From IMG/VR virus record IMGVR_UViG_3300046796_000369: 64,000 nt of DNA, one strand, 5' to 3'. Positions within the stretch are counted from its first letter, which is position 1. The number at the start of each line of letters is the position of its first letter. The position numbers and the translations under genes were made by a program. The notes under the pieces are model-generated. The model was not told the origin of the DNA and ran no database searches. It saw nothing but the letters and a program-made list of their open reading frames with translations. Shown one piece after another: positions 1 to 64,000 of the stretch. This DNA is from a virus.

Positions 1-1162
1 TGTAGGGCCACGAATCGACGCCCTCGTACTGCAGCGTCTGTCTGAGGGAGATGCCGGAACCCTTGTCCTCGATGATCAGCAGGTCGGGCGTCTTGATCTG
101 CTCATGGTACTGGGGCTCGCCCACCACCGGCCTGAAGATCAGGTCGCGGCGTCGGCCATAGCGCGCCTTCATCTCCTGCTTGGCCCGCTTGATCAACTCG
201 GGAAAGCCAATCTGCTCGTGCCAGCATTCGAGCATCATCATGTTCCAGCGGCGCTTCTCGGGGAACACGCCCCACACCGTGCAGGCGGTGAAGTCGGGCT
301 CGTAGTCTTTCTTGTCGAACGTCTTCTCGGTCAGCGCCGTGTCGAGGCTGACGAACACGAAATCGAACCACGGCAGCGGCCGGTCGTGCGTCCATAGCTG
401 CAGCCAGCTTCGCTTGATGATCGCCGCCTCGCCGACCTCCAGCAGTTCGCCCAGCACCTCCTGCCGATAGATTTGCGTGCCCTCGTACTGCTGCAGTTCG
501 TCGAAGAACGCCTCGGCAAGGTTGGCGCGGTTCTCCATGGTGGTGCCGACGACAACCTTGACGTCGCGCCGCGCCAGCATGTCCTTGAGCCAGTCGAGCG
601 GACGTGGCGTCGTCGTGTAGAGTCGTTGAGGCTGGACGCGGCGATTATCGACAGTCGTATAAAACAGACGGGTCGATAGATCGATGTTGCTGATCACCGC
701 CTCTGCCGTGGTGTTCCACGCCGCCGCCTCGTCGCCCCATGTGAAGTGCGCCTGCGGACCGCGCAGACGGTCGGGCGACTCGGCCGAGAAGCCCTTGATG
801 ATCGAGCCGTTGATGAGTCGTATCTCGAAGATCGAGTTGTTGATGCTCGCGACCATCTGGTGCGGGATCATATTGATCAGGCCGGATGGACCGCCGAAGA
901 CCACTCCACGAAGATCGCCGTAAGTGGGGGCGATGACGTGAATGACGCAGCCGGGATATAGACCAGCCTGTCGTCGAACCCAGTTCGATCCCACCAAGGT
1001 CTTGCCGAAGCCTCGACCCGCCTGCACCACGCACAGTGACCAGCCTGACACTGGCAGCAACTGCTTGAGCCGGGCGCGGCGGCTCCAGCGGTTCTCGGCT
1101 TCGATGAAGGCGAGTTCGTGGTCATTAGCGACTCTGAGTCGTTGTGCGTTGATGACCGGCAT
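1..1162 (-). CDS. terL: Terminase large subunit (partial; runs off the left edge)
   Basis: Hand translation from ATG 1162 is open to the window edge, with no stop in the window, so it is missing from the ORF track. It contains Walker A QAGRGFGKT, SPDRLRGPQAHFTWGDEAAAW (Walker B), TTTPRP, YRQEVLGE, and nuclease-domain SLDTA...DFTA and IIEDKGSG. Confidence 0.93.
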   Translation of the reverse strand, partial: MPVINAQRLRVANDHELAFIEAENRWSRRARLKQLLPVSGWSLCVVQAGRGFGKTLVGSNWVRRQAGLYPGCVIHVIAPTYGDLRGVVFGGPSGLINMIPHQMVASINNSIFEIRLINGSIIKGFSAESPDRLRGPQAHFTWGDEAAAWNTTAEAVISNIDLSTRLFYTTVDNRRVQPQRLYTTTPRPLDWLKDMLARRDVKVVVGTTMENRANLAEAFFDELQQYEGTQIYRQEVLGELLEVGEAAIIKRSWLQLWTHDRPLPWFDFVFVSLDTALTEKTFDKKDYEPDFTACTVWGVFPEKRRWNMMMLECWHEQIGFPELIKRAKQEMKARYGRRRDLIFRPVVGEPQYHEQIKTPDLLIIEDKGSGISLRQTLQYEGVDSWPY

Positions 1163-1171
1163 CGAGCAGCC

Positions 1172-1801
1172 TTAGACCGTCGGCTCCTGCCCCACCATGT
1201 CGTCCTCGTCGGGAATGAATGGCACGTCTTTGACCTCCGGTTCAGGGGGCGGCGGCATGTGGGTCGGCGGCAGGTTAATGGCGACCTGCGGATTGGGAGT
1301 CGTTTCCGAGAACGTAGGTGTAGGAACGACCACCACCTCGATGACGGGGGGAGCGACGTAGGCCGCCACCACGTCGTTCGACAGCGCAGGCAGCGACGAG
1401 CCATAGGCATTGGCGACGATCAACTGGCAGGCAAAGGTGTGGCCATCGTCGTCGGGCTGCAACGTGTAGCTGGGGTCGCGCATCATCGCTATCGCCACGC
1501 CGTCGCATAGCCAGTGATAGTCGCGACTCGTCGGCTCGCCCTCCCAGTTGCCTGCCGTACAGGTCAGCGTGTTCGTGTCCGCCGTCTGCTCGGCGTAGGG
1601 ACGGTCGACCACGATGGGCTCGTTGCCCGCTACCACGTCATGGACCGGCAACGCCTCGGCTGGCTGCGACCCGTAGGTGATGGGCGGCTGACCGGGATCA
1701 CCCGGCTGGGCCAGCGGAACGACGAGCGTCTCGACGCTCGGCGGAGCCGCGGGGGACGGATAGTACGTCGTGCCTACCGCGGGGTCGCTGATGTCGCTCA
1801 T
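1172..1801 (-). CDS. Pro-rich protein with one Ig-like domain
   Basis: LTCTAGNWEGEPTSRDYHWLCDGVAI...SYTLQPDDDGHTFACQLIVANAYG matches the phage/bacterial Ig-like strand pattern; the flanks are Pro-rich. Confidence 0.6.
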   Translation of the reverse strand: MSDISDPAVGTTYYPSPAAPPSVETLVVPLAQPGDPGQPPITYGSQPAEALPVHDVVAGNEPIVVDRPYAEQTADTNTLTCTAGNWEGEPTSRDYHWLCDGVAIAMMRDPSYTLQPDDDGHTFACQLIVANAYGSSLPALSNDVVAAYVAPPVIEVVVVPTPTFSETTPNPQVAINLPPTHMPPPPEPEVKDVPFIPDEDDMVGQEPTV

Positions 1802-1845
1802 GTTCTCCCTCCATCTTTGCGATTGAGGGCGGCATCATGCGAGCA

Positions 1846-2139: not shown

Positions 2140-2143
2140 CTGC

Positions 2144-2425: not shown

Positions 2426-2667
2426 TTCCTTTTCTGTCCGGTGGTGTCGGATAAGTGCGTATTGGGACCGATGAACTGCTTGAACTTTTTCATCAGCCTG
2501 TCGAGCGTGCTCTCGTAGTCGATGATGATGTCGCCCGTGAAGCCCAGTTCATCAGCCGTCACATGGATCGGGCTGCCTGCCTTGAGCGCGCGGATATTGT
2601 CCTCGGTGATGCCGAAGATGATGACACCGCGACCCGTCCTGTCATCGCGCGCAGACATCTTGATCAT
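2422..2667 (-). CDS. Hypothetical protein
   Basis: 81-aa ORF with an ATGA overlap to the next gene. Confidence 0.65.
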   Translation of the reverse strand: MIKMSARDDRTGRGVIIFGITEDNIRALKAGSPIHVTADELGFTGDIIIDYESTLDRLMKKFKQFIGPNTHLSDTTGQKRN

Positions 2668-3234: not shown

Positions 3235-3441
3235 TCATGGCTTCACCTTGTCCGTCAGTATCAGACGACCCTTGAGGTGAGCCCGCGCCATCAGACGTCC
3301 AGTGCCGTGACTCAGCACGACATAGGAATACGCCGCCTGCCCCGGCTGCTCGGTCGCCAGCACCATGCCATGCTTCTCGAAAAGATTGCTGAGTTCATCG
3401 AGAAACTTTGGCACATCATGAGTTAGGGGATAGACGGTCAT
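3235..3441 (-). CDS. Hypothetical protein
   Basis: 68-aa ORF overlapping the Lar stop by 4 bp. Confidence 0.55.
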   Translation of the reverse strand: MTVYPLTHDVPKFLDELSNLFEKHGMVLATEQPGQAAYSYVVLSHGTGRLMARAHLKGRLILTDKVKP

Positions 3442-3935
3442 GGCTTAACCTTGTCGATAGCTGCTTGGGCGCGGGCTGCCAGCAGTTTGTGCAAATCGTT
3501 AACGAAGGATGTCGTCTCGGCATCAGCCGCGACCGTGACTGGCTTGCAGATGTCATGGAGCGCTTCCAGCAGGATGCGGATGGTGGCGTCGGCCTCGCGC
3601 TGGTTCCATGCAGCGATGGCTTCACGTTGACCCGTCTTCACGGGTCCATCGGCCTTGCAATTGTTGCACGTCAGATAGTTTCCGTCCGGAAGTGTCTCGC
3701 TGTCGCCCAAAGAGATATTGAAACTGAGACAGAACGGACAGGGATGAAAGGGATGGGGCCGCCGGTTCCATGCAGCGATGATTGTGGAGCGCTGGTTGCT
3801 GGTGACAGAGGTCGCCCAGCAACTCTCGCATTGCACTCGCAATAACTGTGTGTGGACGTTGGGCGAAATCTTCAGAGCATCGCTACCGCAGAATGGGCAC
3901 AGCAACAGCGTGTCCTGTTTTGACGCTGTGGTCAT
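3438..3935 (-). CDS. Lar-family restriction alleviation protein with two tandem zinc-ribbon domains
   Basis: Two copies of CPFC...CxxC...AAWNxR (CPFCGS..CESC..IAAWNRR and CPFCLS..CNNC..IAAWNQR). Confidence 0.75.
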   Translation of the reverse strand: MTTASKQDTLLLCPFCGSDALKISPNVHTQLLRVQCESCWATSVTSNQRSTIIAAWNRRPHPFHPCPFCLSFNISLGDSETLPDGNYLTCNNCKADGPVKTGQREAIAAWNQREADATIRILLEALHDICKPVTVAADAETTSFVNDLHKLLAARAQAAIDKVKP

Positions 3936-4849
3936 CTCACTCTCACGATCTGAGTTGCGTTAACGACTCGGTGCCCGAACACAAACCATGCGAAGTCGAC
4001 CGCGCCGCTGTGGCCTTGGTCGGGCACGCCGGGCGGCAGCATCTTGAGTCGTCCGCAGATGATGATCTTGTGCAGATGCTTCAACAGGTCGGCGCGCTTT
4101 TGGGCGGCGATCCACGTCAGCCGCAACAGCACACACACCTTGCCATCGCTCGGGATGATCTTGAGCGCGTGGCGCACATGATCGTCGCTCTGGTCGAATG
4201 GAGGATTCATAATTATGCTGTCGGTCGTTCCAAGACATCCTATGAAGTCATATCCATACTTGACTTGGGTGCGCATACCGTCAATCGGCACATAGACAAA
4301 CTTGTCGCTGCCATGCGCCCGCTGACCGGCATGGATCAGCGCCTTGACGATCTTGCCGCGCCCGCAACTCGGGTCCCACATCACGCCGGTCAGCGTCACG
4401 TTGCTCAGTAGATGATCGACCGCCTCGTCAGGCGTCTCGTAGTTGTCACGCTCGTCGCGCTCGTTGTCCATCAGACCGTACTGGCCTGCCGCACGACGTG
4501 CGCGCCTCCTGAGAATGTTAACACCGTCATCGAGCGCCCTCCGCAGATGATTGGTGACAAGACGTCCTTGGTCGCGCTTGGGTTGGTTCTTAACCTGTAT
4601 CTTTATGCCGCGCCGCTGGACCTCGGCCCTGAGCAAACGCAGTTCATCTTCAAGCGATAACTTAGCCGTGTCCGTTCGTCCTGCCGTTCGTGATGCGCGG
4701 GCCTGCGAGCGGGTCGGTGAGGTCGCGCTCTTCCGGCTGGTCGTTGGTGGTGGCGAGTCTTTCGCCGCGCTCTTGGCTGTCTTGCGCTTCACGTCGGGCT
4801 GCCTCCATGACATCACGTCGCCGGGCAGTATCACTATCCTGTCGCTCAC
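3932..4849 (-). CDS. DNA adenine methyltransferase (SAM-dependent); true start uncertain, catalytic part about 3932-4472
   Basis: YETP, motif I WDPSCGRG, motif IV IIMNPPF, then LLRLTW and FAWFVF. The first ~60 codons overlap the upstream gene and may be untranslated. Confidence 0.8.
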   Translation of the reverse strand: MSDRIVILPGDVMSWRQPDVKRKTAKSAAKDSPPPTTSRKSATSPTRSQARASRTAGRTDTAKLSLEDELRLLRAEVQRRGIKIQVKNQPKRDQGRLVTNHLRRALDDGVNILRRRARRAAGQYGLMDNERDERDNYETPDEAVDHLLSNVTLTGVMWDPSCGRGKIVKALIHAGQRAHGSDKFVYVPIDGMRTQVKYGYDFIGCLGTTDSIIMNPPFDQSDDHVRHALKIIPSDGKVCVLLRLTWIAAQKRADLLKHLHKIIICGRLKMLPPGVPDQGHSGAVDFAWFVFGHRVVNATQIVRVR

Positions 4850-5339
4850 TGTCCAGCACAGTCTCTGGCGTGATGTCGACGAAGTCCTCGCCGCCTTCGA
4901 GTCGTGCGTTGACCAAGCCGGTCACCACCGCCTCAATCACAGATTGAATATCTCCTCTGCGGCGTTCGTCCTCGGGATCGACGTCATCCTTGCGGTGGCC
5001 AACCTTGCCCTCGATCCGGTCGGCCACCTGCGACCATGCCTGCATGTCGCCGCGCAGGCCCTTGAGCACCGCGGCCTCGGCCCACGCGATGACCGCCGGG
5101 AGGGCGCGCCGCTCGGTCACGCCTTCGTCTCCGACAGGGACAGTTTCGGCGAACGACTCGGCGCGCACTTCCAGTTCCTCGACCGGCCGCATCAGCGCCA
5201 GCCAGAGGGCAACTTTGACCGGGTGCCGCATCCCCACCAGCGCCCGCCAGTCGCGGTCGGCCAGCCGCAGGCCGGGGACTGCATCAAGCGTGCTAATAGC
5301 GGTCAGATCGGAGGTGTTTGGGGGCCGCGCAGGCATCAA
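4662..5339 (-). CDS. Possible terminase small subunit / DUF5681-like helical protein
   Basis: AWSQVADRIEGK resembles the I.DR.EGK signature of TerS-like proteins; it lies upstream of terL on the same strand. The start may be ATG 5231. Confidence 0.4.
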   Translation of the reverse strand: MMPARPPNTSDLTAISTLDAVPGLRLADRDWRALVGMRHPVKVALWLALMRPVEELEVRAESFAETVPVGDEGVTERRALPAVIAWAEAAVLKGLRGDMQAWSQVADRIEGKVGHRKDDVDPEDERRRGDIQSVIEAVVTGLVNARLEGGEDFVDITPETVLDSERQDSDTARRRDVMEAARREAQDSQERGERLATTNDQPEERDLTDPLAGPRITNGRTNGHG

Positions 5340-5645
5340 AACCGCCTTGTACTACGGGTGCTACACCCCCCTCCTAACACTTTTCTCACCGTATATAATA
5401 TTCACGTTTACTACCCCCCAAAAACGCATCTCGCGTACGTTACCCAGACACTAGGTGTAATAGGTGTAGTACCGTAAACACCGTTGATTTTATTAGATAA
5501 TTTCATGCTACGCTTATGCTACGGTACTACGCCTCCCGGCACCAAACTGGCGGTATATCTTCACTGTACGTGATGATACTGCGTCAAAACGGCGTTATAT
5601 CTTCACTGTACGTGATGATACTCAGCCCATTTGTACTACGCACCC
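5340..5645. promoter_or_regulatory. AT-rich region with many CTAC/TACACC-type short repeats; candidate replication origin and/or promoter
   Basis: Sharp GC drop, iterated actac/gctac/gtgta words and a 27-bp direct repeat, immediately downstream of the VapE helicase. Confidence 0.4.
5554..5622. repeat. 27-bp direct repeat, 42-bp period, spanning the VapE stop codon
   Basis: tatatcttcactgtacgtgatgatact at 5554-5580 and 5596-5622. Confidence 0.9.
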
Positions 5646-7257
5646 CCTCTCTGGCTACGGGGTCGACCGGCACCCAGCAGCGCAGCGCTTTGTGGACCCC
5701 GTTGCGCCGGTAGCTGGTCACCGTCGAACGCCAGCCCAGCCGGGTGAGGGCCTGCGTGATGGAGTACTGGTGGCGCTCCGCCTGATCGTGCGGGATGCGC
5801 AGCCACTGCACCGCCACCCGGAGCGGCGTCACCACATTGCCCCAGCGCTGCGGGCTGGTGAAATTGCCCAGCGTCGGATCGGGCGGCTCGATGGCCGGGC
5901 TGCTCACCGAGCCGTCATACAGGCCCGCTCCGAGCAGATGCTCGCGGATGGTCTCCTCATACATCGAGACCTGCTGGTGCCTCTCCACGGCCTGCGCATG
6001 AGCCGCGGCGGGCACTTCCCACCACGTCGCGCCATCCTCGTAGAGGCTCAACCCCTCGGCGATCAGTTGATCGCGGTGGGTGCGCAGCCAGTCGACATTG
6101 ATCACGCCGCAGGTCACCGGCCAGAAGCGGCGGCCCCCGGTCTCATCGCGCAGCCACGCCCGCTGGTTGCCGGTTCCTGTCGGAACGAATCTCCGCTTGT
6201 GATGCTTGCTGGTGCGGCCGTACGGCACCCTGAACTTGTCGGAGGCGCACGACAGCGCCTGCTTGACCTTGGCCATGTCGACGCGCGTCGAAACGATGGA
6301 CGCCAGTTCAGCGATCTCGCCCAGCCACACGCCCTGAATCTGCAGATAGAAATCCTTGTTGGCCGGGTTCTCGCTGATTTCGGCGAAGAACGGTCCGCCC
6401 AGTATCTGCATGGCGGTCGACTTGAGCGTGCCCTGCGCGCCCAAGAACACCGGCATGGTGTCCATCTTGCAGCCTGCCCTGAGCGCGCGTGCCGTCATGC
6501 TGACGACCATGTTGCGGCCGACTGCCTCAAGGTATTCCAGCGTCTGGCCCTGTTCGTCGTCGACCACGGCACCGAAGCCAATCGTCATCATGTCCTTGAG
6601 TCGTTCTACCCTGTCCCACTGCGGCACGCCCTTGACGTGGTCGACCAGCACGTCGCGGCAGTCCAGTTCAGCGACATAGAACACCGCCTGCTCGACGGTG
6701 CGCATATGCACGTTGCCCAGTACCTCGATGTTGAGCGCCATCATCCACATCATGATCTTGCGCATCACCGCGTCGTCGACATCGTAGGCCTCGACCACGT
6801 CCTCGCTGCGGTCGCACTTCCAGTCGGTCCTGATCTGATTCAAGAACGTATCGAACCACAGGCGGCCCCGGCGCTGGCGCAACAGCAATCCGACGCACAC
6901 GAACAGCGGCGATTCGCTTTGCAGCATCTCGTCGATGTTGGTCACCGCCGCCATCGCGCCGGGCTCGCGTGCGGCGCGCCGCAGCTTCCTGATCAGCGCC
7001 TTTTTCAAATCGCCGAGGAAGCCGCGCGTGTCGGTCCATGACAGCAGGTTAAGGCCATCGGGATTGTCGCGATGCACGACCTTGACCATGCTGACGAACG
7101 AATTGACGGACTCTTCCGAGCCCAGCCGCGCCGCCAGCGCGGCGACCTTGGGCAGGATGGTGCCGTAGATCGTCATCTCGGCATCGGCCAGATAGTCGCG
7201 CGCCAGTGCGCGCAGTTCCTCGGTCCGGGTCGGACCGGCCTCCGACGGATCAGGCAT
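5584..7257 (-). CDS. VapE (virulence-associated E) family P-loop ATPase / replicative helicase
   Basis: KMDTMPVFLGAQGTLKST (Walker A), WLGEIAEL (Walker B), DKFRVPYGR, GTGN, DETGGRRFWPV. The start was moved to ATG 7257 to avoid overlap with the upstream ORF. Confidence 0.88.
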   Translation of the reverse strand: MPDPSEAGPTRTEELRALARDYLADAEMTIYGTILPKVAALAARLGSEESVNSFVSMVKVVHRDNPDGLNLLSWTDTRGFLGDLKKALIRKLRRAAREPGAMAAVTNIDEMLQSESPLFVCVGLLLRQRRGRLWFDTFLNQIRTDWKCDRSEDVVEAYDVDDAVMRKIMMWMMALNIEVLGNVHMRTVEQAVFYVAELDCRDVLVDHVKGVPQWDRVERLKDMMTIGFGAVVDDEQGQTLEYLEAVGRNMVVSMTARALRAGCKMDTMPVFLGAQGTLKSTAMQILGGPFFAEISENPANKDFYLQIQGVWLGEIAELASIVSTRVDMAKVKQALSCASDKFRVPYGRTSKHHKRRFVPTGTGNQRAWLRDETGGRRFWPVTCGVINVDWLRTHRDQLIAEGLSLYEDGATWWEVPAAAHAQAVERHQQVSMYEETIREHLLGAGLYDGSVSSPAIEPPDPTLGNFTSPQRWGNVVTPLRVAVQWLRIPHDQAERHQYSITQALTRLGWRSTVTSYRRNGVHKALRCWVPVDPVAREGVRSTNGLSIITYSEDITPF

Positions 7258-7773: not shown

Positions 7774-8760
7774 TCAATATGTCATGTAGCGTGGTCGTGC
7801 GCGTGGCCTGCGCGGTTGCATCCGCTTCCAGCGCTCGCGCCGGAGAAGCCTGCGCCAGTGCTGGCGCAGGTCGTAGTCGCGCTCGACATTCTCGATGTGC
7901 CCGACCGCCCATTCCCGGAGATAGTCAAATTCACGATTGACCGCGTCGGCGTTGTCGATGTCGTGGATGCTGGCCAGCATCATGCCCATCATGCGCGTCA
8001 TCGCCTCGAAGCGGGTGATGTCGGTCTCGCCGTGATTGATCCGGCGGGCCGGGAGTTCGTCCATCGGCACCACGCGGGAAAAGCCAAGAAGATTGGGTTG
8101 TTCTTCCGAGTCGTTCGCCGGACCCTGACCCTGCTCGGTACGCGCGCCGCCCAGCCGCTGCTCGGCGTCTTCGACCGCCAGCAGGCTGTCGGTCTGGTAG
8201 GCAATCGTCACCGGCATCGGCGCGCCCTTGCGGTGGACGCTGCCCGCTATCCTGATCGGCTGGTGAGGGCTCTGGAACGAGCCGTCGGCCTGCACATGAT
8301 CGGCGGCGGCACGACGCAGCCGCGCCACCCGCGGTGCCGCGCAGTCGCCGCTGAGTCGCCAGAACAGATGCGTCTTGGGCTGACCGTCGAGCAGGCCGCC
8401 GGAGTGGACGGCCAGTGCGGGCGATCCCAAGAGTTCGATCAGCCTGATGCACTTGCCTGCGATATCACCGGTATCGAAATCGACACACAGGGTCGGCAGG
8501 CTGACGACATCGGCGGCACCCGCCGCGCGCCCGCGTACAAACCCCGGTACGCAATACGCCGCCAGTCCGCGCTGGTCGCAGATTCTGGCGAAATCGACCA
8601 CGCCCTCGATCCAGTTGGCATGGAACGGGTTGATCCACGGCGTGTAGGGCACGCCGTCTTTGCCGCGCTCGGCGTAACCACGAAGGGCAATCAGGCTGCC
8701 AAGTGGCGGATTTTCAAAGACAATTTGGCAATATTGCCGAATAGCGACAGGATTAAGCAC
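7774..8760 (-). CDS. RepB-like DNA primase (AEP superfamily)
   Basis: LCVDFD, AVHSGG...KTHLFWRL and HQPIRIAGSVHRK motifs; adjacent to VapE. Confidence 0.7.
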   Translation of the reverse strand: MLNPVAIRQYCQIVFENPPLGSLIALRGYAERGKDGVPYTPWINPFHANWIEGVVDFARICDQRGLAAYCVPGFVRGRAAGAADVVSLPTLCVDFDTGDIAGKCIRLIELLGSPALAVHSGGLLDGQPKTHLFWRLSGDCAAPRVARLRRAAADHVQADGSFQSPHQPIRIAGSVHRKGAPMPVTIAYQTDSLLAVEDAEQRLGGARTEQGQGPANDSEEQPNLLGFSRVVPMDELPARRINHGETDITRFEAMTRMMGMMLASIHDIDNADAVNREFDYLREWAVGHIENVERDYDLRQHWRRLLRRERWKRMQPRRPRARPRYMTY

Positions 8761-17573: not shown

Positions 17574-19535
17574 ATGGTCAGACGAATCGAAGACCCGCGC
17601 CAGAACAGCCTCGGCCTGAACGAGCCGCTGCGCACGTTTACGCCGCCCGCCGGTTGGGCAGTTCAAGAGTCGTTCCCGGAACTGGAAGGGATCGTCGCCA
17701 TCGATCTTGAGACCAAGGACATCGGCATCACCAATGGCGTCGGTCCGTGCTGGCCGCATCGCGGCGAAGGCTTCATCTGCGGCGTCGCGATCTGCTGGCG
17801 GCGCAGCAAGTTCTATGTGCCGCTGATGCATGCCGCCGGGAACCTCGACCCTGACCGGCATCACCGCTTCTGGGTGTGGCTGAAAGAGCAGGCCGAGAAG
17901 CCTGACGTCACGTTCGTGATGGCCAACGCGGTGTACGACACTGGCTGGCTCAGGCGGTTGAGCATCGTGCCGCACAACCCGCCCATCGACGTGCAGGTCA
18001 TGGCATTCCTGCTCGACGAGCACCGCATGAGCTACTCCCTGTCGTCGCTGTCGAAGCACTACCTGCACCGCGACAAGGGTACGCTGACGCTGTTCGACAT
18101 GGCCAAGAGCCTGCACATCAAGCATCCGATGTCGAACATGGACAAGCTGCCTGCGTGGATCGTCGAGCCCTACGCGCTGGACGACGTCGACCTGACGTAC
18201 TGTCTCTACTACGACCTGATCCCCAAGATTGCCGCCGAGAAACTGGGCGAGCCGCTCAGGCTGGAGAGCGAATGCACCATGGTCTCGGTCGACATGCGCT
18301 GGGAAGGCGTGCGGGTCGATCAGCGACGACTCGAACTTCTTGGCGCGCAATTCGCCCTCAAGGTCGAGCGCGCTCTGGCACAGATCATCGATCTGACCGG
18401 TATCCGGGTCGAGCCGTTCGACAACGGCGAAGCGATGAAGGCACTGCGTGCGGAGAACAGCGCGGTGCAGTTTGGCATCACCGAGAAAGGCCGCGACAGC
18501 GTCGACCGCTTCGCCCTGCAGGCCATCGGCTCGCCGGTCGCCATGGCGATCCTCGAAGCGCGCAAGTACGAGAAGGCACGCGGCACATTCGTCGAGTCGT
18601 TGGGTCATTACATCCGCAACGGACGCATCCATGCCGAGTTTCATTCAACGAGGAATAACTCCTCCAATAACGACGATATGTTTGGCGACGACTCGATGTA
18701 TGGAGCAACGTCAGGCCGCTGGGCGTCGTCGCATCCCAACCTGCAGAACATCCCGGCCCGCGACGACGTGATAGGCCCGGCCGTGCGCTCATGCTTTATT
18801 CCGGAAGACGGCGAGCGCTGGCTCAAGTTGGACTACGCATCGCAGGAGCCGCGCCTCACCGTCCACTTCGCCAGCATGGCGACGATCAACGGCAACCGTC
18901 TCACGGGTGCCGCCGAGATGGTCGAGCGTTTCCAGAAAAACCCGATGACCGACCTGCACGGCGAATGTGCCGCCCTGATGGGCGTCTCTCGCGCGCAGGC
19001 CAAGACGATCAACCTTGCACTGGCCTACGGCATGCAGGGCGGCGCGCTGTGCAAATCTCTCGGACTGCCCACCAAGACCATGACGATGTTCAACGGAAAC
19101 GAAATCGAAGTCGCGGGCGATGAAGGCGAGATACTCCTGCGCAAGCACTTCAATGCAGTACCTTTCGTCAGGCAGTTGTTCGATCTGGCCAAGCACACGG
19201 CGAAGTCGCGGGGCTACGTCAAGACCATCACCGGCCAGAAGATTCGCTTTGAGCGGTATGCCGATGGCAAATTCGCTCGCGTTCATAAGGCGCTCAATGG
19301 CGTCATCCAAGGCTCTGCCGCGGGCCAGATGAAGATGGCGCTGGTCGCCCTGCGCCGGGAGAACATGCCGGTCAACCTGACGGTCCATGACGAGGCCGAT
19401 TGCTCGGTCCCCATGGGCGAGGCGGGAGAGATACTGATCGACCGCATGACGACCATCATGGAGGAGGTCATAAAAATCGCCGTGCCGATGGTCGCCGAGG
19501 CCAAAACCGGGCCATCGTGGGGGGAGTGCAAATAA
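17574..19535 (+). CDS. polA: Family A DNA polymerase with 3'-5' exonuclease domain
   Basis: Exo I IDLETK, Exo II NAVYD, Exo III YALDD; SGRWASSHPNLQNIP; motif A DYASQEPR; motif B RAQAKTINLALAYG; motif C TVHDE. Confidence 0.95.
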   Translation: MVRRIEDPRQNSLGLNEPLRTFTPPAGWAVQESFPELEGIVAIDLETKDIGITNGVGPCWPHRGEGFICGVAICWRRSKFYVPLMHAAGNLDPDRHHRFWVWLKEQAEKPDVTFVMANAVYDTGWLRRLSIVPHNPPIDVQVMAFLLDEHRMSYSLSSLSKHYLHRDKGTLTLFDMAKSLHIKHPMSNMDKLPAWIVEPYALDDVDLTYCLYYDLIPKIAAEKLGEPLRLESECTMVSVDMRWEGVRVDQRRLELLGAQFALKVERALAQIIDLTGIRVEPFDNGEAMKALRAENSAVQFGITEKGRDSVDRFALQAIGSPVAMAILEARKYEKARGTFVESLGHYIRNGRIHAEFHSTRNNSSNNDDMFGDDSMYGATSGRWASSHPNLQNIPARDDVIGPAVRSCFIPEDGERWLKLDYASQEPRLTVHFASMATINGNRLTGAAEMVERFQKNPMTDLHGECAALMGVSRAQAKTINLALAYGMQGGALCKSLGLPTKTMTMFNGNEIEVAGDEGEILLRKHFNAVPFVRQLFDLAKHTAKSRGYVKTITGQKIRFERYADGKFARVHKALNGVIQGSAAGQMKMALVALRRENMPVNLTVHDEADCSVPMGEAGEILIDRMTTIMEEVIKIAVPMVAEAKTGPSWGECK

Positions 19536-29460: not shown

Positions 29461-29480
29461 GACTCATCCCCCTCGCTGGC

Positions 29481-29693
29481 TCAGTGCGCGATTTCTTCGC
29501 CCTTGTCGGCACCGTTGGCAGGAGGCCGCGCCGCCGCCTGTTGAACGGCTTCGATGGAGGCTGATGTCTGCTGGCGGATGATGGAAATGAGGTCCGCCAC
29601 TTCATTGAACGGACATGCACCCAGCTTGGAGAGCATGAGGTTCACCTGATCGAAGCGCAGGGTCATCTTTATGACGATGTCTTTAGGGTCCAT
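29481..29693 (-). CDS. Hypothetical protein
   Basis: 70 aa; LxxLGxxPFxEVAxLI pattern typical of small genes in tail-fibre clusters. Confidence 0.6.
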   Translation of the reverse strand: MDPKDIVIKMTLRFDQVNLMLSKLGACPFNEVADLISIIRQQTSASIEAVQQAAARPPANGADKGEEIAH

Positions 29694-29696
29694 GGT

Positions 29697-29957
29697 TTAT
29701 TCCTTGTTAAATGGACTATGCTCTTCGTGCAGCAGGTCGTGCTTGGCGGTTTCGAGGAACCCCACCGTCTCGATGCGATTGATGTCACCGGACTGGTAGA
29801 CCGCGAACGACCGGTCAGGGCGCACCGCGACGCACACCATGCCGGAGATGCCCTCGTTCTCGATGTCGGCGACGAGTTGGCGTGCCACGTCCAGCAGACG
29901 TTCCTTGAACTCCTGCTGGACGGTCGGCTTGCCGACGACTTTAAGATCAGCGGTCAT
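29697..29957 (-). CDS. Hypothetical protein
   Basis: MTADLKVVGKP..., ATG 29957 inside the tracked ORF. Confidence 0.6.
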   Translation of the reverse strand: MTADLKVVGKPTVQQEFKERLLDVARQLVADIENEGISGMVCVAVRPDRSFAVYQSGDINRIETVGFLETAKHDLLHEEHSPFNKE

Positions 29958-29959
29958 CT

Positions 29960-30202
29960 TTAAGCTTTCTTTGTACCGGCTACGGGTGTGACGAACGCCT
30001 TGAACGCCGTGCTGCAAGCGGGGCAGAGGAACATCGTCGTGCCGCCCATGCCCGGTGGCGGCATCCCCGTCGGCGGTGCCTCGGCGGGCGTCTCCTGCGC
30101 GGTGAGCCGCGTCCACCCGACGGGGGGCGTGCTGGATACTTGCGGCGGCGTGGTCACGGCATCGCGGTCGCACACGAAGGTGTAGTTGGTTTCCATGGTC
30201 AT
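29960..30202 (-). CDS. Small zinc-binding hypothetical protein
   Basis: CDRD and CPAC. Confidence 0.55.
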   Translation of the reverse strand: MTMETNYTFVCDRDAVTTPPQVSSTPPVGWTRLTAQETPAEAPPTGMPPPGMGGTTMFLCPACSTAFKAFVTPVAGTKKA

Positions 30203-30217
30203 TTCGATTTCCCTTTC

Positions 30218-33040: not shown

Positions 33041-33054
33041 CGGTCTGTCCTACT

Positions 33055-33459
33055 CTAAGCGTTGGCGTCCGTGAGCGTGAACGCCGTGACACTCACCGTC
33101 TGGCCAAGAACCAAGGTGGTGTTATCAAGCTGCAAGTCGCCTGATCCCTGTCCCACGGTGCCTTGCATCTCGCATACCGTACCTGCGGTATTGTGGATGC
33201 GGAAATGTGCGGCCACGCCACCAGCATCGGCCGACACGTCCTGCCATGGCCCGCCCAAGATCGACTTCGCGCCCGCCGCCGCCGCCGCCAACCAGTCGGA
33301 AGGAAGGTTGATCGTGGCGAGCACGGTGCCGCTGTTCGCCGCTCCGCAGTTCGCAGGCTGCGCGCCGGTCCTGATCGTCAGAAGGGGCGCGGTGCCGAGC
33401 GTGGTTTCGATTGCATCGAGCCGCGCGTTGCGCGTCAGCACTCCAAGTTGAACGGCCAT
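33055..33459 (-). CDS. Conserved virion structural protein
   Basis: RNARLDAIE..L.IRTG..P...GTVLA...HFRI...QGTVG..GDL.LDNT. Confidence 0.7.
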   Translation of the reverse strand: MAVQLGVLTRNARLDAIETTLGTAPLLTIRTGAQPANCGAANSGTVLATINLPSDWLAAAAAGAKSILGGPWQDVSADAGGVAAHFRIHNTAGTVCEMQGTVGQGSGDLQLDNTTLVLGQTVSVTAFTLTDANA

Positions 33460-33468
33460 GGCATTCTC

Positions 33469-35211
33469 CTAATTGGTATCAACCCATATATCATTGACGG
33501 CTGGTGAAGATGGAGCCGTCGTTCCCACGGTGACTTGCGGCGTGCGTGCGTGGACGAAAGCCGTCGAGGCCAGCAATGCGCTGTTGGTGGCAGGGACCTC
33601 GGTCACGCCGGTAATCGAGCCGGGGAAGTAGCTGCTGCCGTCGCGTCCGAAGTACCACGATTTGACGCTGGTATAATCGTCAAGCGCGGCAGTCAGGTGA
33701 AAAGTGCCGACGCTATCCTGCGACATGTACCAAAGGCGCGTGTTCGCAGCGAGGTCGCTGCGATTGATGTCGATCCCACCCCAATCGCTGGACGTTGCAT
33801 TTATTTCCAGCCATCCATTGGCGGACATCCAAGTGCCCGCGCTGGGATCGCCAATCGTAAGATCGCCCGTGAGCGTGCCGCCCGTGAGCGGCAGGAACGC
33901 ACCGCTTCCACCGGCCCCGGCACCAGAAGGCGATGCCGGAACCCACTGTGCCGAGTTGCCGTCGTTGAACCAGATGTACAGCGCGCCGCCGCCACTGGTC
34001 GTGGCGTTGGGGTTGTACCAGAACTGTCCGTTGGTCGGAGAGACTGGCGGGGTCGGAGTCGTTTCGGTGGCGGAGCCTCCACCTCCACCTGTCCCCGGCG
34101 GTCCCACCGGCCCCGGCACCGACACGGCGGCGGGTACCCACTGGCTCGTATCGGGATCGCTGTACCAGATGTACAGCATGCCGCCGCCAGCGGAGTCGTT
34201 GTTGAACCACCAAAGCTGGCCGGGGGTTGGCGAGACGGGAGCCGTGAGGCTGATCGTGGTCGCCGCGACTCCGGTTGCGCCGGTCGCACCCGCCGGTCCG
34301 GTCGCACCCGTTGACCCAGTCGCGCCGGTTGGCCCCGGCTCGCCGCGTGCGCCTATGGCGGCAGGCACCCACTGAGTCGTGTCGGCATCGGTGTAGCGGA
34401 TGTAAAGCTGACCGCCATAGGTCGACGTGGCCTCGTTGTAATACCAAAGCTGGCCGTTGATGGGCGACGGCGGCTCGGTGAGACCGATGTAGGTCGTGCC
34501 GGGTGCGCCTGTCGGACCCGCGGGTCCTACCGAACCCGGCGGACCGGGAACCGTGCTCGCCGCGCCTTGCGGGCCGCCGGGTCCTTGTGGCCCCGTGGCT
34601 CCTGCCGGTCCGGTGGGGCCGGGCACCGTGCTGGCAGGACCTGTCGCTCCGATAGGCCCTGCAGCCCCTGCGGGGCCCGCAGGACCTGACGGACCTGTCG
34701 GGCCGGGTGGACCTACCGCACCGCCGCCTCCTGCCACCCACACGCCATTCTGGCGGCCATAGACGGTACCGTCGAAGGGTGCCTCCTCGACGAACCACTT
34801 CTGAACCCATTCAGTGGTGGCGAGTATTTTCGAGTTCTCGCCTGCCGACAGGAGATTACCGTTGGCCAGCACGTTGACCGGTATCGTCAGATTTCCGGGC
34901 CAGTCGAACTGGGCGAGATGCACTCTCGACGACTCAGTTCCGTCGGTGCCTACGAACGACAGATTGCCGGGGCCGGTCGAATAGATGCCCGGTGTCTTAT
35001 CGCCTTCGAGCGTCCACTGGATCGACGGATTCCAGAAGTCTCCCTTCTCGACGTGAATGACGCCCTGAAAGAACGGATCGATGAAGATCGGCCCGGTATT
35101 GAACACCAGCGCGCCGTAGCCAGTCGTCGGGTACGGAGCCCCGCGCTGGTCGACAAGCTGCATCGGTGTCCCACCGGCAGTGACGATGGTGATGGTTTGA
35201 ATCGGGATCAT
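33469..35211 (-). CDS. Collagen-like tail fibre with three GQxW...QWVP modules
   Basis: [18 protein letters not shown] runs, [12 protein letters not shown]-terminal [17 protein letters not shown]. Confidence 0.82.
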
Positions 35212-40052: not shown

Positions 40053-41714
40053 CTACCTCATCATGTTCAGCGCACCGGGAGGTGGCATCATCGGCATACC
40101 ACCTCCCCCGCCGCCGCCGGAGAACACACCGGGAGGAGCCATGCCCTGCGGCAGGACACCCATGCCGGGAGGGGGCATGGGCGGACGACTGTTCATCATC
40201 ATCATGCCGCGCTCGACCGGGACGGAGCCGCCCACGTCGTAGCGGCTCACCGCGCCGCCCCGCGCGTAGGGCCGCGGCGTGGCATTCACCGGGAAACCCC
40301 GCGCGCGACGACTCAGCACGCCGCGCGGCTCGACGATGGGCCCGAACGCGGTGCCGCCTTGGGCGTAGCGTCGGATCATTCCGCCGCGCGCCGCCCCTGC
40401 CTGTACGATTGTCGGTGCAACGCCCGCGCCCGACGTCGCGATGCCTGCCGCTGTGTAGGGATTGTTAAGCGACGTGTAGTTAGGTCCAGTGAAACCGTTG
40501 GGCCCGCCGAAGGTATCGGAAGCTGCGTTGTAAAGGTTTTCGATTCCGCCCACACCATCCTTGGCCCCCACTGCATTGGCGGCGGTGAGGCCGCCCATGA
40601 TGGTGCCCAAGGTCGACGGCGTATTGCTCGACGAGCCGGTCCCGGTCTGCGTGCTCTGCTCGGTGGTGGTCGTGGGAATCTTGAAAGGGGCCTGCACGTT
40701 GGCCAGAAAGTTGGCCATCTGGAACGGGTACTGCTTCTGGGCCAGCCAGTCGTTGTAGGCGAAGGTGCGCGGCAACTGGCCCTGCGTCTGCTGCGCAGTG
40801 CCCCAGTCCATCAGCGCCTTGTTGTTGGCGTTCTGGACGTTGTTGTAGCTGGTCCCCAAGGCTCCGTAGCTGTTGGCCAGATTGATTCCGTTGTTGATCG
40901 ATCCTGTCGTTATCCGAGAATAGGCGTCGGCGAGGTTCGTGTTCGCCTTCATGTTGGTATCGGCAACATTGGCGAGGTTCAGGCCGAGGTTCTGCCAGTT
41001 GCTGCGGTCGGCGTTGAACTGCCCGGCATTCTTGAAGTAGTCGTTGCTGGTCTGCGTCAGGTCGTTGCCCGACATCTCGTTGCCGAAGGTCCGCAGCGCC
41101 TTCTGCATGCTGGTATTGTAGCCGGTCCGTCCGATGGCCCCGTAGCCGCTGGCGAAGCGCGAGTTGAGGCCGTTCAGCGTCTCATCGAAGCCGCGGGTGG
41201 CAAGCTGGTTGCCGCGGTTTATCGCGCCTGCGAGGTAGGGGTTCTGGTAGGCCGCCTGAACATTTGGATCGGTCCAGTCGCGACCCGCCATCGAGAGCGC
41301 GCCCGCGCCAGCATCCCACGGCCGAATCGAATTTCCCGCCTGATCGAGAAACGGCTGGGCGCTGGCCAGAGAGTCACGACCCGACACCGCGTCGAGCGCG
41401 CCTTTGCCTGATCCGAACAGCGGATCGACATTGCCCTGCGCGGCGCGTATGCGGTCGCCCGCGGCGGTCTGGTCGGCCGAGAACGGCTCGAACAGCTTGC
41501 TGGAGTCGTACGACTCGTACGGCGTGTTTGCTGCGGTCTGCGCCCGGTCGAGAACGCCTTGTGTGTAATTGTTGTACCAAGACGGGTAATTGACCGAAGT
41601 CGTGCGGTTCAGGTTCTGGGCGGAGGTCGACGCGCCTGAGCCCTTGTTCAAGGCAGAACTTGCCGCACCGACAACGGAAGATGCGACCATCGCCGCTGGC
41701 AACATCCAAGCCAT
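40053..41714 (-). CDS. Putative DNA pilot / ejection protein (553 aa)
   Basis: Hydrophobic N-terminus, Q/N/A/G-rich, YQNPY motif. Confidence 0.6.
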   Translation of the reverse strand: MAWMLPAAMVASSVVGAASSALNKGSGASTSAQNLNRTTSVNYPSWYNNYTQGVLDRAQTAANTPYESYDSSKLFEPFSADQTAAGDRIRAAQGNVDPLFGSGKGALDAVSGRDSLASAQPFLDQAGNSIRPWDAGAGALSMAGRDWTDPNVQAAYQNPYLAGAINRGNQLATRGFDETLNGLNSRFASGYGAIGRTGYNTSMQKALRTFGNEMSGNDLTQTSNDYFKNAGQFNADRSNWQNLGLNLANVADTNMKANTNLADAYSRITTGSINNGINLANSYGALGTSYNNVQNANNKALMDWGTAQQTQGQLPRTFAYNDWLAQKQYPFQMANFLANVQAPFKIPTTTTEQSTQTGTGSSSNTPSTLGTIMGGLTAANAVGAKDGVGGIENLYNAASDTFGGPNGFTGPNYTSLNNPYTAAGIATSGAGVAPTIVQAGAARGGMIRRYAQGGTAFGPIVEPRGVLSRRARGFPVNATPRPYARGGAVSRYDVGGSVPVERGMMMMNSRPPMPPPGMGVLPQGMAPPGVFSGGGGGGGMPMMPPPGALNMMR

Positions 41715-52703: not shown

Positions 52704-53047
52704 GGAGCACTCCCAGAGGTTTGATGTGAACGACTAGGCGCGACTCGACTAGCGAGTGTTTCGCCTGCTCCGTTCCGACACCAAGACCCCGCGCGGTTAA
52801 ACCCGAACCAACTGGCTACAAGGACTCCGTCCGCGCGAGCGGCAACCTCCTACGAGAGTGGGCCGAGACTATGCTCGGCCCACCTGAGTCGTCAAGACGC
52901 TGAGTCGTTTTGCGCCTACACCAAAACACGTTTTTACCGAAGGTTGTTGGCCCGCTTGAAACTAAGCCACCTAGACATGTCGAGTCGTCGCCTGCCTCAA
53001 ACCCTCAGTTTTACCGACAGTTAATGCCACTCCGAAATGCCTTGACG
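52704..53047 (-). promoter_or_regulatory. 344-bp structured leader of the capsid operon
   Basis: Non-coding; three GAGTCGT copies, a hairpin GTGGGCCGAG/CTCGGCCCAC (52859-52884), and two GTTTT(T)ACCGA words. Confidence 0.5.
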
Positions 53048-62600: not shown

Positions 62601-64000
62601 CTCCGATACCGGTGACGCGCCCGCCGAATGCAGTCCGGTGCGCGCGTTGAACATGCGCTGATAGGCAGGATCGGTACCGAGGTAGCTCATGCGATCCCAC
62701 AGCGGCTGCATCTCGTACCACGACCGCGTCAACCTCAATGTCGGATCATCCAGAGCCGCCTCGGCGATATTGGTGATGCGGTTCATGTTGCGGCCGGTCA
62801 GGACCTGCGGCGATATCGCCGAACCGCGCCCGTTCTTGGGACGATAGGCGGGCGGTACCAACAGCAGGTTGGAGTAGTCACGCGCCGACTGCATCTCGTC
62901 CAGTTCATTGCGCCCGACACCGAACAGGCGACGCATAGCCTCCTCATCGCCCGCGTCGTACTTGGCCTTGGCCTCCGCGATAAGCTGAGATGGTGGTTTA
63001 TAGATGCCGGGGAAGCTGAGTCGTCGCGGATCATCAACCGTCTGGATGCTCGGCACCGGATTGAGCAGGATCGGCGCAGACTTGGGCTTGCGTGCCGCGT
63101 TGAGTTGTTTTTCCTGTTCGTTGAGCCGGGCAATGCGACGGCTCAATGCGGCCTCGGCTTTATCCTTCAAACCAACCTGTGTCAGAGCACCGACGTCGCT
63201 CAGGTCCGCGCCGCTATTGTCGGGTGCATTGCCGATGTCGCTCAGGTCGGCTGATGTATCGTCGGGCGCGTAGCCGATTTCGCCAAGACCACCAAAGCGA
63301 TAATTGCGCACGGCACCACCCTTGGATTTCTCGCGGTTGACGATGTCGATCAGGTCGGACGACTGCGGGAAGACAACGTAGTTGCGCGTGTCGCCCGATC
63401 CCTGACGACTGAACTTGTCGAGAAAGCGAACACCGGGGAAGCCTACTTCACTGAGATACGCTGACGTGTGCTTCTTGGGATCAGTGTCGCCACGCATCCA
63501 GTCGGAGCCCATCAACGATTCAGGCAACGACTCGTGGACATCGGGGGTCGTCAAAGAATGAAACAGTTCCCTGCCCTCATAGGCTCCGGGATCGGCGCTG
63601 AATGGATTGAGGCCATGATTTTCAACGTGATAGTCGAGTGCGTCCCGCACCTTTGGATGAATGCGGTTCCATGTGTTTGAATCGACCGGCGCATCCCAGT
63701 CGAAGAACTCGCTCGGCTTGGCGTTAAGGTCGAGGTGATAGAGCCAGCCCGGCTTCTGCGTGCCGTAGCCGGGAGGCAGGCCCTCCATGATCGCCTTGAT
63801 GTTCTCAGGCGAGTAGCGTTCGCCGCCTGCGCGTACGCCGAGACCATGCGCGATTCTTGATTCATCTTCGCCGCGAGCCGCACGTTCCCTGATCGACTTG
63901 GCGAGCAGGGAAAGCATGCGCGGGTCTTCGTCGTAAGGCAGATGCATGCCCGCCAGCGACTCAAGGACACGCTGCGATTCAAGATCGTCGACCGGCAATC
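59622..64000 (-). CDS. Giant multidomain (polyvalent-like) virion protein, at least 1458 aa, probably truncated at the right edge
   Basis: The tracked start is a TTG at the edge. Domains include WLY..DL....FDWD...GVRFLD..SR....TRNYVVF (ART-associated type), an HDMYGH domain, and a low-complexity C-terminus. Confidence 0.7.
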   Translation of the reverse strand, partial: LPVDDLESQRVLESLAGMHLPYDEDPRMLSLLAKSIRERAARGEDESRIAHGLGVRAGGERYSPENIKAIMEGLPPGYGTQKPGWLYHLDLNAKPSEFFDWDAPVDSNTWNRIHPKVRDALDYHVENHGLNPFSADPGAYEGRELFHSLTTPDVHESLPESLMGSDWMRGDTDPKKHTSAYLSEVGFPGVRFLDKFSRQGSGDTRNYVVFPQSSDLIDIVNREKSKGGAVRNYRFGGLGEIGYAPDDTSADLSDIGNAPDNSGADLSDVGALTQVGLKDKAEAALSRRIARLNEQEKQLNAARKPKSAPILLNPVPSIQTVDDPRRLSFPGIYKPPSQLIAEAKAKYDAGDEEAMRRLFGVGRNELDEMQSARDYSNLLLVPPAYRPKNGRGSAISPQVLTGRNMNRITNIAEAALDDPTLRLTRSWYEMQPLWDRMSYLGTDPAYQRMFNARTGLHSAGASPVSETNRGTLANMMAEQGRLGDYVNFGGVSEKGSTKKGVYIPSRYEMENFPPDMLDAPSHAYHTTAHVPGLINLEASGKLWSDRHKVPTYVQATDPIWSDPRSPIADSHISRGVGYGDVRTAKSQDSLFKELTNPEYDDFLPWWQQASRKVDMYPRDLQAMIWNVLGPQTGVRTIGSPKLELLSGQIMKAAQRLGVSPETARDLIITGKAGAYDEGGMVPEFGGPEGFVKKGVLSTLNRLAEGKPKTVKLPGVGEMPSYPIKEIEDIAGGFARKQGRDYPVESFPAFDEDRARKVAEAYESMQHNPFDPATKRSYEALIDETMDQYRALRPLGTQFEFLKPGEGNPYKESPALGYHDVLANNRLKVFPTEGGFGSVNETLNHPLEMTKAGQIGDLPDARVNDAFRIVHDMYGHFGPGNPYFRHKGEDRAWRAHARLYSDDAIPAMTSELRGQNSWANFGPYAERNRGASQDDTVYADQKVGLLPSFAWDDYNKAEGGPVQHFQDGGPPDSDYPAIGTTDYNFSNPRDDFGEFRLTPTAAERRASMERLQNAGTRTDPVRSYLGNLGKRISDYRANQAELWSGKEYNPNDQANSQLGMMNRILLENMSGGLSHNIAARYGTNPDQLDYAAEVGRQKAMTQGARDNIHPGLRDLADVLPFATTLPFQMGTQPLMSMASSFLNPAPSYMAKIKHAADEQTVPIKKGISGMYNLLRDNFPRRLPEFDDGGVVGSGALSARLGGDPMAFVKGIIPGAVDQFGDVPGQKQVQPPPTLPPLPAPQGAGQAGQGSSGSSAFNMGLSALPMIAKMFGGAGGAGGAGAAVPEIPPIYAAGGSVDDDMLGYHVMNYAMGGYVPGFDDGGPVQPPGSMGSVMNTPQWGQNGPPGSMGSVMNTPQWGQNGPDGQPRQLIDSPIDWLTGRPADWSMAPQSAQVPPSMPGNTGQPQNVLNNMANSVMPMPPPTPQGLGQGVGALSGGMNGTGGGAGGNNPIRGSLSIQGSF
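59920..60030. repeat. Tandem repeat encoding PPGSMGSVMNTPQWGQNGP twice
   Basis: ggaccgttctgtccccactgcggcgtgttcatgaccgaccccatcga occurs twice in frame. Confidence 0.85.

Follow-up and report, generated by a model that had tools for sequence, protein, structure and literature searches.

A densely iterated GAGTCGT word in a clade of soil podophages and its possible link to a small phage methyltransferase

The window and its iterated word

The stretch of DNA analysed here, referred to as the window, comprises 64,000 bp (G+C 61.9%) of the IMG/VR virus record IMGVR_UViG_3300046796_000369 and represents most of a podophage genome of about 70 kb (the longest contig with its methyltransferase measures 69,936 bp). 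It carries a dense array of the heptamer GAGTCGT, which reads ACGACTC on the other strand, and near the gene of the large terminase (TerL) it encodes a small putative N6-adenine methyltransferase, the candidate writer or reader of that word (Table 1). The phage is present in soil and rhizosphere metagenomes of 24 studies, in the form of assembled short-read contigs. Its TerL is 44.5% identical to that of the nearest cultured relatives, the Caulobacter phages RW, KcrB, RLK and GB2A; a search at the DNA level returned no close phage, and literature searches yielded nothing specific on the heptamer or on the avoidance of GANTC by phages of this kind.

Eighty genes, covering 93% of the window, were called with a codon model trained on long open reading frames (ORFs); these are our own, uncurated calls. 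Relatives (L-numbered loci, partial contigs throughout) were sampled in four ways: as homologues of the capsid protein, as homologues of the methyltransferase, with a TerL profile in viral contigs, and with the same profile in bacterial assemblies. The class of the putative hosts was represented by 406 alphaproteobacterial genomes (5 + 401). The tally of 401 includes one unpublished genome (G045), on which no claim leans individually.

The 91 copies of GAGTCGT compare with 11.1 +/- 2.9 copies (maximum 19) in dinucleotide-preserving shuffles and with 9.0-11.2 expected from Markov models of orders 1-3, and the word is the strongest 7-mer outlier of the window (z = 23.9 at order 3). An earlier note on this DNA had reported a roughly tenfold excess from a manual count of about 85 copies against about 8 expected; the excess is borne out, the manual count having been slightly low. 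The same note had considered that the excess might disappear once codons are preserved, which is not the case: within coding sequence, within-gene shuffling of synonymous codons gives 13.0 +/- 2.9 copies where 82 are found, shuffling of codon order gives 6.3 +/- 2.4, and even a very constrained shuffle in which the flanking bases are fixed as well gives 47.4 +/- 3.5. Out of 263 tripeptides able to encode the word, 82 actually do so. The density is about 1.9 per kb outside the gene calls (9 copies) and 1.4 per kb in coding sequence (82 copies in 59.5 kb). The enrichment is independent of coding and composition. We therefore give practically no weight to an artefact of composition, codon usage or repeats, which is refuted by the shuffles and by the scatter of the sites over more than 40 genes, every frame and both strands.

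The copies occupy all six strand and frame classes, with 9-21 copies in each, and draw on codons that are rare in this genome, as the earlier note had described: 31 of the 85 CGA codons (36%) lie inside motif copies, as do 13 of the 121 ACT and 9 of the 86 AGT codons. The example given there from the terL gene (CAA CGA CTC) and the palindromic pair of Table 1 were likewise found as described. The spacing of the copies is Poisson (CV 1.03). Mapping of strand and frame, proposed in the earlier note, showed a random orientation (49 plus and 42 minus copies; 52 runs against 46.2 +/- 4.7) without any regional strand switch.

The word extends beyond seven positions, with the full form C-GAGTCGT-Y. 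Of the 91 window copies, 43 have T and 35 have C at position 8 (together 78, or 86% pyrimidine, in line with the earlier note), and position -1 is C in 45, T in 22, G in 18 and A in 6, that is, mostly not A. Among 244 distinct sites in the relatives, C stands at -1 in 70% and a pyrimidine at +8 in 93%. The neighbours that differ at position 7 are scarce, as had also been noted before: GAGTCGC occurs 12 times, GAGTCGA 5 times and GAGTCGG 4 times, where 13-19 are expected. The word is asymmetric and not palindromic, only the inner CGANTCG being quasi-symmetric, and it has adenines on both strands within its GANTC core, the classic type of target for N6-adenine methylation.

Table 1. Features of the window that bear on the GAGTCGT array, with positions in the window
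Feature	Position	Strand	Remarks
Large terminase (TerL), N-terminal 387 aa	2..1162	-	Gene runs off the window; PF03237; phylogenetic marker for the phage clade
GAGTCGT array, 91 copies	620..63533		49 copies on +, 42 on -; full form C-GAGTCGT-Y; 82 coding, 9 intergenic
165-aa protein with two tandem Lar-type CxxC...CxxC zinc ribbons	3438..3935	-	ATG overlaps the methyltransferase stop codon (ATGA)
Putative small N6-adenine methyltransferase, 179-aa core (P0122)	3932..4471	-	Candidate writer/reader of the motif
p224, DUF5681-like conserved protein	4662..5336	-	Its gene directly precedes that of the methyltransferase in all motif-clade loci that cover the slot (tblastn synteny)
VapE-type replicative helicase	5584..7257	-	PF05272, E 1.9e-55; same module as the primase candidate
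RepB/AEP-like primase candidate, 328 aa	7774..8760	-	Upstream of the VapE helicase; protein-language-model neighbours RepB_primase, PriCT_1, AEP-TOTE 0.94-0.96
Family A polymerase	17574..19535	+	35-37% to Pseudomonas phages PaMx11, Ab18-20, ZC01
Motif-free island, 4.6 kb	29461..34056		Around a 940-aa tail-fibre-like gene (30218-33040) and small neighbours; bounded by two copies, none between
Palindrome GAGTCGTACGACTC, 14 bp	41503..41516		Two abutting copies in opposite orientation, within gene 40053-41651
Three same-strand copies in about 100 bp	52886..52988	+	Non-coding leader upstream of the capsid-side operon

The further recognisable genes of the window encode an amidoligase, a GGACT protein, an SNF2 helicase, collagen-like fibres, a GH73 lysin and an SU10-type adaptor. 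No other modification or nuclease genes were recognised in the replication module, and the primase candidate had no Pfam or PHROG match. In the phage groups of PaMx11, Ab18-20 and ZC01, to which the polymerase points, thymidine is hypermodified. Among the window genes neither a hydroxymethylase nor a kinase was recognised, and a single-protein scan with the polymerase gave nothing. The strict avoidance of SAGCTS and GANTC, described below, argues that the DNA is ordinary enough for cutting, and we do not take the amidoligase and GGACT genes as candidates for DNA modification.

Distribution, turnover and the avoided GANTC core

The excess is limited to one phage clade and is neither family-wide nor shared by putative hosts. 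Every contig with a TerL identity of 84-86% to the window is 7-15x enriched for GAGTCGT, and the same range applies to L019-L021 and L219/L220, with TerL identities of 65-69%. In L022, L096, L098, L099, L204, L213 and L225 (TerL about 64-65%) the word GAGTCAG is enriched instead, its copies being mostly GAGTCAGA and scattered on both strands. The TerL phylogeny places the enriched phages together in a single clade (support 98/99) with two subclades, AG (100/99) and GT, named after the last two letters of the word. The outgroups L107 and L108 branch outside this clade and show no enriched word. L108 lies on a 488-kb contig of a Pseudomonadota metagenome-assembled genome (JBMONG010000032.1, 385607-407181) and shares TerL (57%), portal (52%) and neighbouring virion genes; it is either an integrated relative of a lytic-looking family or an assembly chimera.

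An enriched word is also lacking in the relatives with 64-77% capsid identity. Caulobacter phage RW has 5 copies of GAGTCGT where 7.5 are expected, and about 70 RW-like contigs are equally without excess. None of the 406 alphaproteobacterial genomes comes near the density of the phage, and in most of them the word is under-represented, at about 0.2-0.5x of a reversed-word control; the densest genome has about 1 copy per 3.5 kb, whereas the phage has 1 per 0.7 kb. A like excess in unrelated phages or in the putative hosts, which the earlier note had named as speaking against a phage-specific system, was thus not found. Two sets of candidates were rejected. The genomes G271, G280, G107 and G110, considered as carriers for their high ratio, neither avoid GAGTC in general nor specifically favour GAGTCGT, and the enriched word shared by L103 and L105, two loci with distant methyltransferase homologues, stems from tandem repeats inside one gene.

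Within the clade the number of sites is kept while the sites themselves move. Among aligned window sites, 33 of 64 are conserved in close relatives, against about 23% for control 7-mers, a difference of about twofold; at the tier with 65% TerL identity the conservation is at background (2 of 13) and the density unchanged. The same turnover at kept density is seen when L019-L021 are compared among themselves. These conservation counts share phylogeny, are partly pseudo-replicated and are to be read as indicative. The sites also come at a cost, since they often replace residues that are conserved in five motif-free relatives (in the portal, ETS to ESS, RA(V/T) to RVV and VRP to TTP; in TerL, QKL to QRL), and the residue identity beneath sites is 0.40, against 0.49 elsewhere. 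The one-mismatch partners of sites in the relatives differ mostly at positions 2 and 4, which breaks GANTC, or by T7 to C, and they involve mixed types of substitution.

The island of 4.6 kb in the tail-fibre region (Table 1) adds to this picture. It has a single internal GANTC (at 32980) where 16 are expected at the window rate (P(<=1) = 2e-6). Its source resembles a GANTC-free, motif-free phage, and the island is probably a recently imported host-range module, still lacking the motif. Taken together, the conservation, the turnover, the residue changes and the island point to a strong, cumulative pressure on resident DNA, by which density is maintained rather than position. This agrees with the proposal in the earlier note that a dense array of sites is maintained in the phage DNA for a factor that reads sequence; the shuffles, the residue replacements, the roughly twofold conservation and the constant density under turnover all speak for it.

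The favoured word is one context within an otherwise avoided GANTC core. In total, GAGTC is not over-represented in the window (139 copies against about 123-159 expected), and 91 of the 139 continue as GT; all other GAGTCNN together are depleted about threefold (48 against about 148), and GAATC/GATTC is depleted as well (84 against about 147), a 2-3 fold depletion of GANTC outside the favoured context. In the relatives with 64-77% capsid identity GAGTC is avoided by a factor of 4-5. At the RW-like tier (TerL 42-45%), where no word is enriched, loci typically have 0 GANTC where 20-100 are expected. Most of the RW-like IMG/VR loci L023-L092, of 4-21 kb, have 0 GAGTC and 0 GAATC, and Caulobacter phage RW itself retains 59 GANTC sites in 62 kb. 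The top 7-mer outlier of RW (L001+L002, MK929790.1) is another word, CTGAGGT/ACCTCAG, with 37 copies against 8.4 expected (z 9.8), and its annotation includes a 176-aa SAM-dependent methyltransferase between two terminase fragments.

A second avoided word has a different distribution. SAGCTS (CAGCTG, GAGCTC and CAGCTC/GAGCTG) is wholly absent from the window, where about 87 copies are expected, and from L010, L019, L020, L021, L022 and L096 (0 against 19-31 expected); its frequency is normal in the close relatives L009, L011, L013 and L015 as well as in the outgroups. The pattern is a patchy, fast-evolving restriction-avoidance footprint of a SAGCTS-reading enzyme. The second over-represented word of the window, AAGCTG/CAGCTT (76 copies against 23, and 74 against 39 +/- 5 after synonymous shuffling), has 28 genome-wide copies as CAG CTT in frame 0 and looks like an escape product of this avoidance, for example with Gln-Leu written as CAG-CTT and not as CAG-CTG.

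The candidate methyltransferase and the readings of the word

The methyltransferase gene can be read further upstream than its 179-aa core, to 4636 or 4849. In its translation motif I (DPSCGRG) is followed by motif IV (NPPF), which is the order of the gamma class, and the residues G37, G39 and N89-P90-P91 are invariant across 13 homologues. The protein matches phrog_799 'DNA methyltransferase' (E 2.5e-39) and has no Pfam match. Its family counts 56 proteins, on phage contigs, and a search of 185,579 representative genomes of bacteria and archaea found no member. The structure model is a class I Rossmann domain (pLDDT 88, pTM 0.86), for which Foldseek gives as best matches the catalytic domains of M.TaqI, M.BseCI, CamA, PacII and HsdM (prob 1.0, TMq 0.56-0.69).

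A slot made up of p224, methyltransferase and TerL is conserved in L219/L220 and in both the window and AG groups. The outgroup L107 has homologues of VapE and p224 (28% identity) and lacks both the methyltransferase and the motif. A complex prediction for p224 and the methyltransferase scored 0.04, below the mark of 0.32, and counts neither way. On the downstream side, the zinc-ribbon protein is not conserved, and the relatives have unrelated ORFs of about 60 aa in its place; a conserved Vsr-like or specificity partner was accordingly rejected as a candidate. One homologue lies elsewhere. L012, a 122 kb contig from JGI 3300036781, has a protein 51% identical to the methyltransferase, directly behind a primase-helicase of the Toprim/D5_N-DUF5906 type, with a serine recombinase nearby and UvrD/PD-(D/E)XK and PLD-type nuclease genes on its flanks; it has no enriched word, and its context looks like that of an integrative element in a cellular genome.

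In the methyltransferase tree the clade of the window (98/92) consists purely of GT contigs, and the AG contigs form a clade of their own (98/99); the two labels cluster on this tree far beyond shuffles (0 of 200). A prediction based on L022, namely that an enzyme of the second subgroup goes with GAGTCAG, was confirmed in L096, L098 and L099 and subsequently in L204, L213 and L225. In L009 and L013 the primase-helicase module differs from that of the window, and the motif, the methyltransferase and p224 are common to both.

Since the motif clade coincides with the acquisition of the enzyme, and the sister subgroup of enzymes with GAGTCAG, we favour the methyltransferase among the candidates. 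The earlier note had listed this enzyme (as 3932-4849) beside host CcrM/GcrA, a nickase and a packaging protein. The comparative data favour the first; GcrA/CcrM alone cannot explain GAGTCAG, and the gene content lends no support to a nickase or a packaging protein. Our tentative reading, which we hold to have a little less than an even chance, is that GAGTCGT is an iterated target of the phage methyltransferase, resembling the HIP motifs of cyanobacteria and kept dense by selection. This estimate concerns the identity of the word as an iterated target and not the downstream use of the sites. The small gamma-class enzyme would methylate the adenines of the embedded GAGTC/GACTC only in the context C-GAGTCGT-Y. 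The phage family would purge GANTC, most simply because its hosts restrict it, and in the clade that acquired the enzyme GANTC in the enzyme's own context would be favoured and not just tolerated. Partners that break GANTC are expected on this account, because off-context GANTC would be harmful and in-context GANTC favoured. Selection on the number of sites, and not on their place or orientation, would hold the density at 1.4-2.1 per kb, and with the divergence of the enzyme into a second subgroup the favoured word would have become GAGTCAG(A). With low confidence, we suggest that the many m6A sites per genome may form a dosage-type epigenetic mark, and, with as little confidence, that they may identify or shield the phage DNA against a GANTC-directed host activity or load a reader of methylated GANTC. 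Action of the enzyme on DNA, its reading of a word of 7-9 bp and the role of the dense marks are inferences of ours.

Several observations weigh against this reading. The main threat comes from L019 and L020, which have a full, maintained motif and no enzyme homologue in the slot or elsewhere in their contigs of 14-19 kb; the search in L019-L021 (Pfam, PHROGs, a scan for NPPY-type motifs and a six-frame profile search) covered 12-19 kb of incomplete genomes, and L021 is uninformative on the presence of the enzyme. L219 has the GT motif, yet its enzyme sits on a long branch nearer to the AG group. A third clade of enzymes, on short contigs (pooled 12.6 kb), goes without a detectable dense motif, its top words coming from the shared gene itself; as neither this clade nor the L012 homologue shows an enriched word, possession of the enzyme does not suffice. 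Only about two evolutionary events underlie the covariation, which shared ancestry or a shared host could therefore produce. In Foldseek the RNA m6A enzymes METTL5 and TrmM match the fold about equally. The matches span only the catalytic domains of enzymes of 380-610 aa, and in the model the approximately 85 residues after NPPF lie within the Rossmann core, so that there is no separate target-recognition domain; judged from this model, a catalytic-domain-only enzyme that would read 7-9 bp is odd. Finally, protection by methylation accounts for the tolerance of sites and not for an 8-fold excess.

The lineage L019-L021, in whose contigs no such enzyme was detected, would be accommodated if the word were set by a host-encoded reader, such as a Chi-like AddAB/RecBCD signal, an uptake-type signal or a host modification site, with GT and AG representing two groups of hosts. 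The variants at clade level could indeed follow host lineages, and the SAGCTS footprints show that even close relatives meet different hosts. We nevertheless consider such a reader unlikely. The word has no polarity or orientation structure along the genome, it is under-represented in the 5 + 401 genomes sampled from the Alphaproteobacteria, and those with a high ratio neither avoid GAGTC nor favour GAGTCGT. Moreover, SAGCTS avoidance is patchy within the GT clade where the motif is constant, so that the motif tracks the host less finely. About equally improbable, in our view, is a molecular drive without function, in which context-specific biased repair or gene conversion, possibly dependent on methylation, turns near-matches into the word and depletes its neighbours. 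Such a drive, as in Elhai's repair model for HIPs (PMC4390886), would suit sites that are free in position and orientation and Poisson-spaced, as well as their amino-acid cost, the depletion of many one-mismatch neighbours and the still site-free imported island, which a slow cumulative process predicts. The biased repair named in the earlier note is not favoured, since in close relatives conservation of the sites is about 2x that of control 7-mers, the kind of result that Xu et al. took as an argument for selection on HIP1 (PMC5861425). Furthermore, the one-mismatch partners lie at positions 2, 4 and 7 and do not belong to one transition class, no Vsr-like or other mismatch endonuclease was found in the window (the gene downstream of the methyltransferase being unconserved), and the intergenic density barely exceeds that of coding sequence.

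The phage's own replication proteins and the cell-cycle regulators of the host were considered as further readers. Plasmid RepB' primases start at specific sequences, and the word could be the initiation or recognition site of the phage's RepB/AEP-type primase, or of another replication protein, dense for the priming of the lagging strand. The protein at 7774-8760 resembles RepB/PriCT/AEP primases, on each strand the sites lie about 1.4 kb apart, which is similar in order to the length of an Okazaki fragment, and the methyltransferase homologue of L012 also adjoins a primase-helicase. In L009 and L013, however, the same motif is found at full density beside a non-homologous D5/DUF5906 module and no RepB-like protein; the spacing is no more regular than random, there is no strand switch, and the avoided GANTC core inside the word is left unexplained. 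We regard this possibility as very improbable, and place only slightly above it the proposal that the array acts as a sink or loading platform for GcrA, a cofactor of sigma-70, on sites methylated by CcrM or by the phage enzyme, which would draw RNA polymerase or starve the cell-cycle promoters of the host. CGAGTCG and TGAGTCG belong to the class YGAKTCK that GcrA prefers, TGAGTCG ranking third (PMC4647560); the preference had been quoted as YGAKTCG in the earlier note, which is not the published form. A pyrimidine stands at -1 in 74% of the window sites and in 84% of the 244 sites in relatives, a dosage-type function suits sites free in position and orientation, and the nearest cultured relatives infect Caulobacter. 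On the other hand, the GAGTCAG(A) of the sister clade has A at the K position and falls outside YGAKTCK, as positions 7-8 fall outside the GcrA element; and GcrA occupancy is mainly governed by sigma-70, with most GANTC sites unbound (PMC4647560). A GcrA sink is a downstream use and is compatible with the word being a methyltransferase target.

Building on the preferred reading, that of an iterated methyltransferase target, one may go further and imagine a private epigenetic code, in which a minimal enzyme would write m6A on about 100 copies of an 8-9 bp context of GANTC, the cell-cycle site of Alphaproteobacteria, while other GANTC is purged. The resulting dosage array would capture GcrA/sigma-70 RNA polymerase or flag the DNA as self to a nuclease, and word and enzyme would co-evolve, as from GT to AG. 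In this extended form we think the idea improbable.

Comparison with known systems

Motifs of the HIP1 type have been without explanation for three decades, partly because they occur in large chromosomes with many methyltransferases. Here a comparable phenomenon is found in a phage of 70 kb with a single small candidate enzyme, and the natural switch from GAGTCGT to GAGTCAG, the outgroups without enzyme and motif, and the word-free imported module make the link directly testable. One genome is shaped both by the purging of sites (GANTC and SAGCTS) and by a positive pressure for one GANTC context, so strong that conserved residues of the portal and the terminase have been altered. Should a host factor or a nuclease read the marks, they would represent a new type of phage-host interaction; if the sites are produced by biased repair, the phage would offer the clearest small-scale model of it.

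The general design is found elsewhere as well. Chi, KOPS and DNA uptake sequences are also words of 7-8 bp, occur about once per kb or few kb and are tolerated within genes, but all three belong to the host chromosome, and Chi and KOPS have a polarity relative to replication; the phage word is without polarity and without excess in the 406 genomes of the putative host class. Restriction-site avoidance is seen in the same genomes (GANTC at the RW-like tier, SAGCTS in the window), yet its sign is opposite to that of the present finding, in which one context of an otherwise avoided site is in 8-fold excess. With CcrM and GcrA, for which the published preference is YGAKTCK (PMC4647560), the phage word shares GANTC, and most copies fit the extended GcrA context; CcrM, however, reads any GANTC, whereas the phage favours one context of 7-9 bp and purges the rest, and the phage enzyme (179 aa, gamma class, no detectable Pfam domain) is not a CcrM homologue as far as tested. 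It has in common with the N6-adenine methyltransferases of the M.TaqI type the order of motif I and NPPF and the matching Rossmann fold, and differs from them in having a catalytic domain of about 180 aa only, where those enzymes have a recognition domain.

The closest parallel is offered by HIP1 (GCGATCGC) and its alternates. As in the phage, a short word is many-fold over-represented, lies in all frames and is conserved above background, and HIP1 is maintained by selection (PMC5861425). The alternate HIP motifs of cyanobacteria co-occur with methyltransferases specific for them (PMC4390886); in the phages, the GT and AG variants track two subgroups of the candidate enzyme. The differences are considerable: HIP words are palindromic and lie in cellular chromosomes, whereas the phage word is asymmetric and forms an array in a phage genome; the enrichment is 8-15x for the phage word and 15-300x for HIPs; the HIP side is represented by a C5-cytosine/GATC pair of enzymes and the phage side by an N6-adenine candidate. 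The spacing of the phage word is Poisson, in a stretch of 64 kb that is too short for assessing long-range periodicity. Finally, unlike the HIPs, the phage word is nested in an otherwise avoided GANTC core. By analogy, the array may best be placed near the HIP motifs, though outside any named family, being asymmetric, phage-borne, apparently tied to an adenine methyltransferase and placed within an avoided core.

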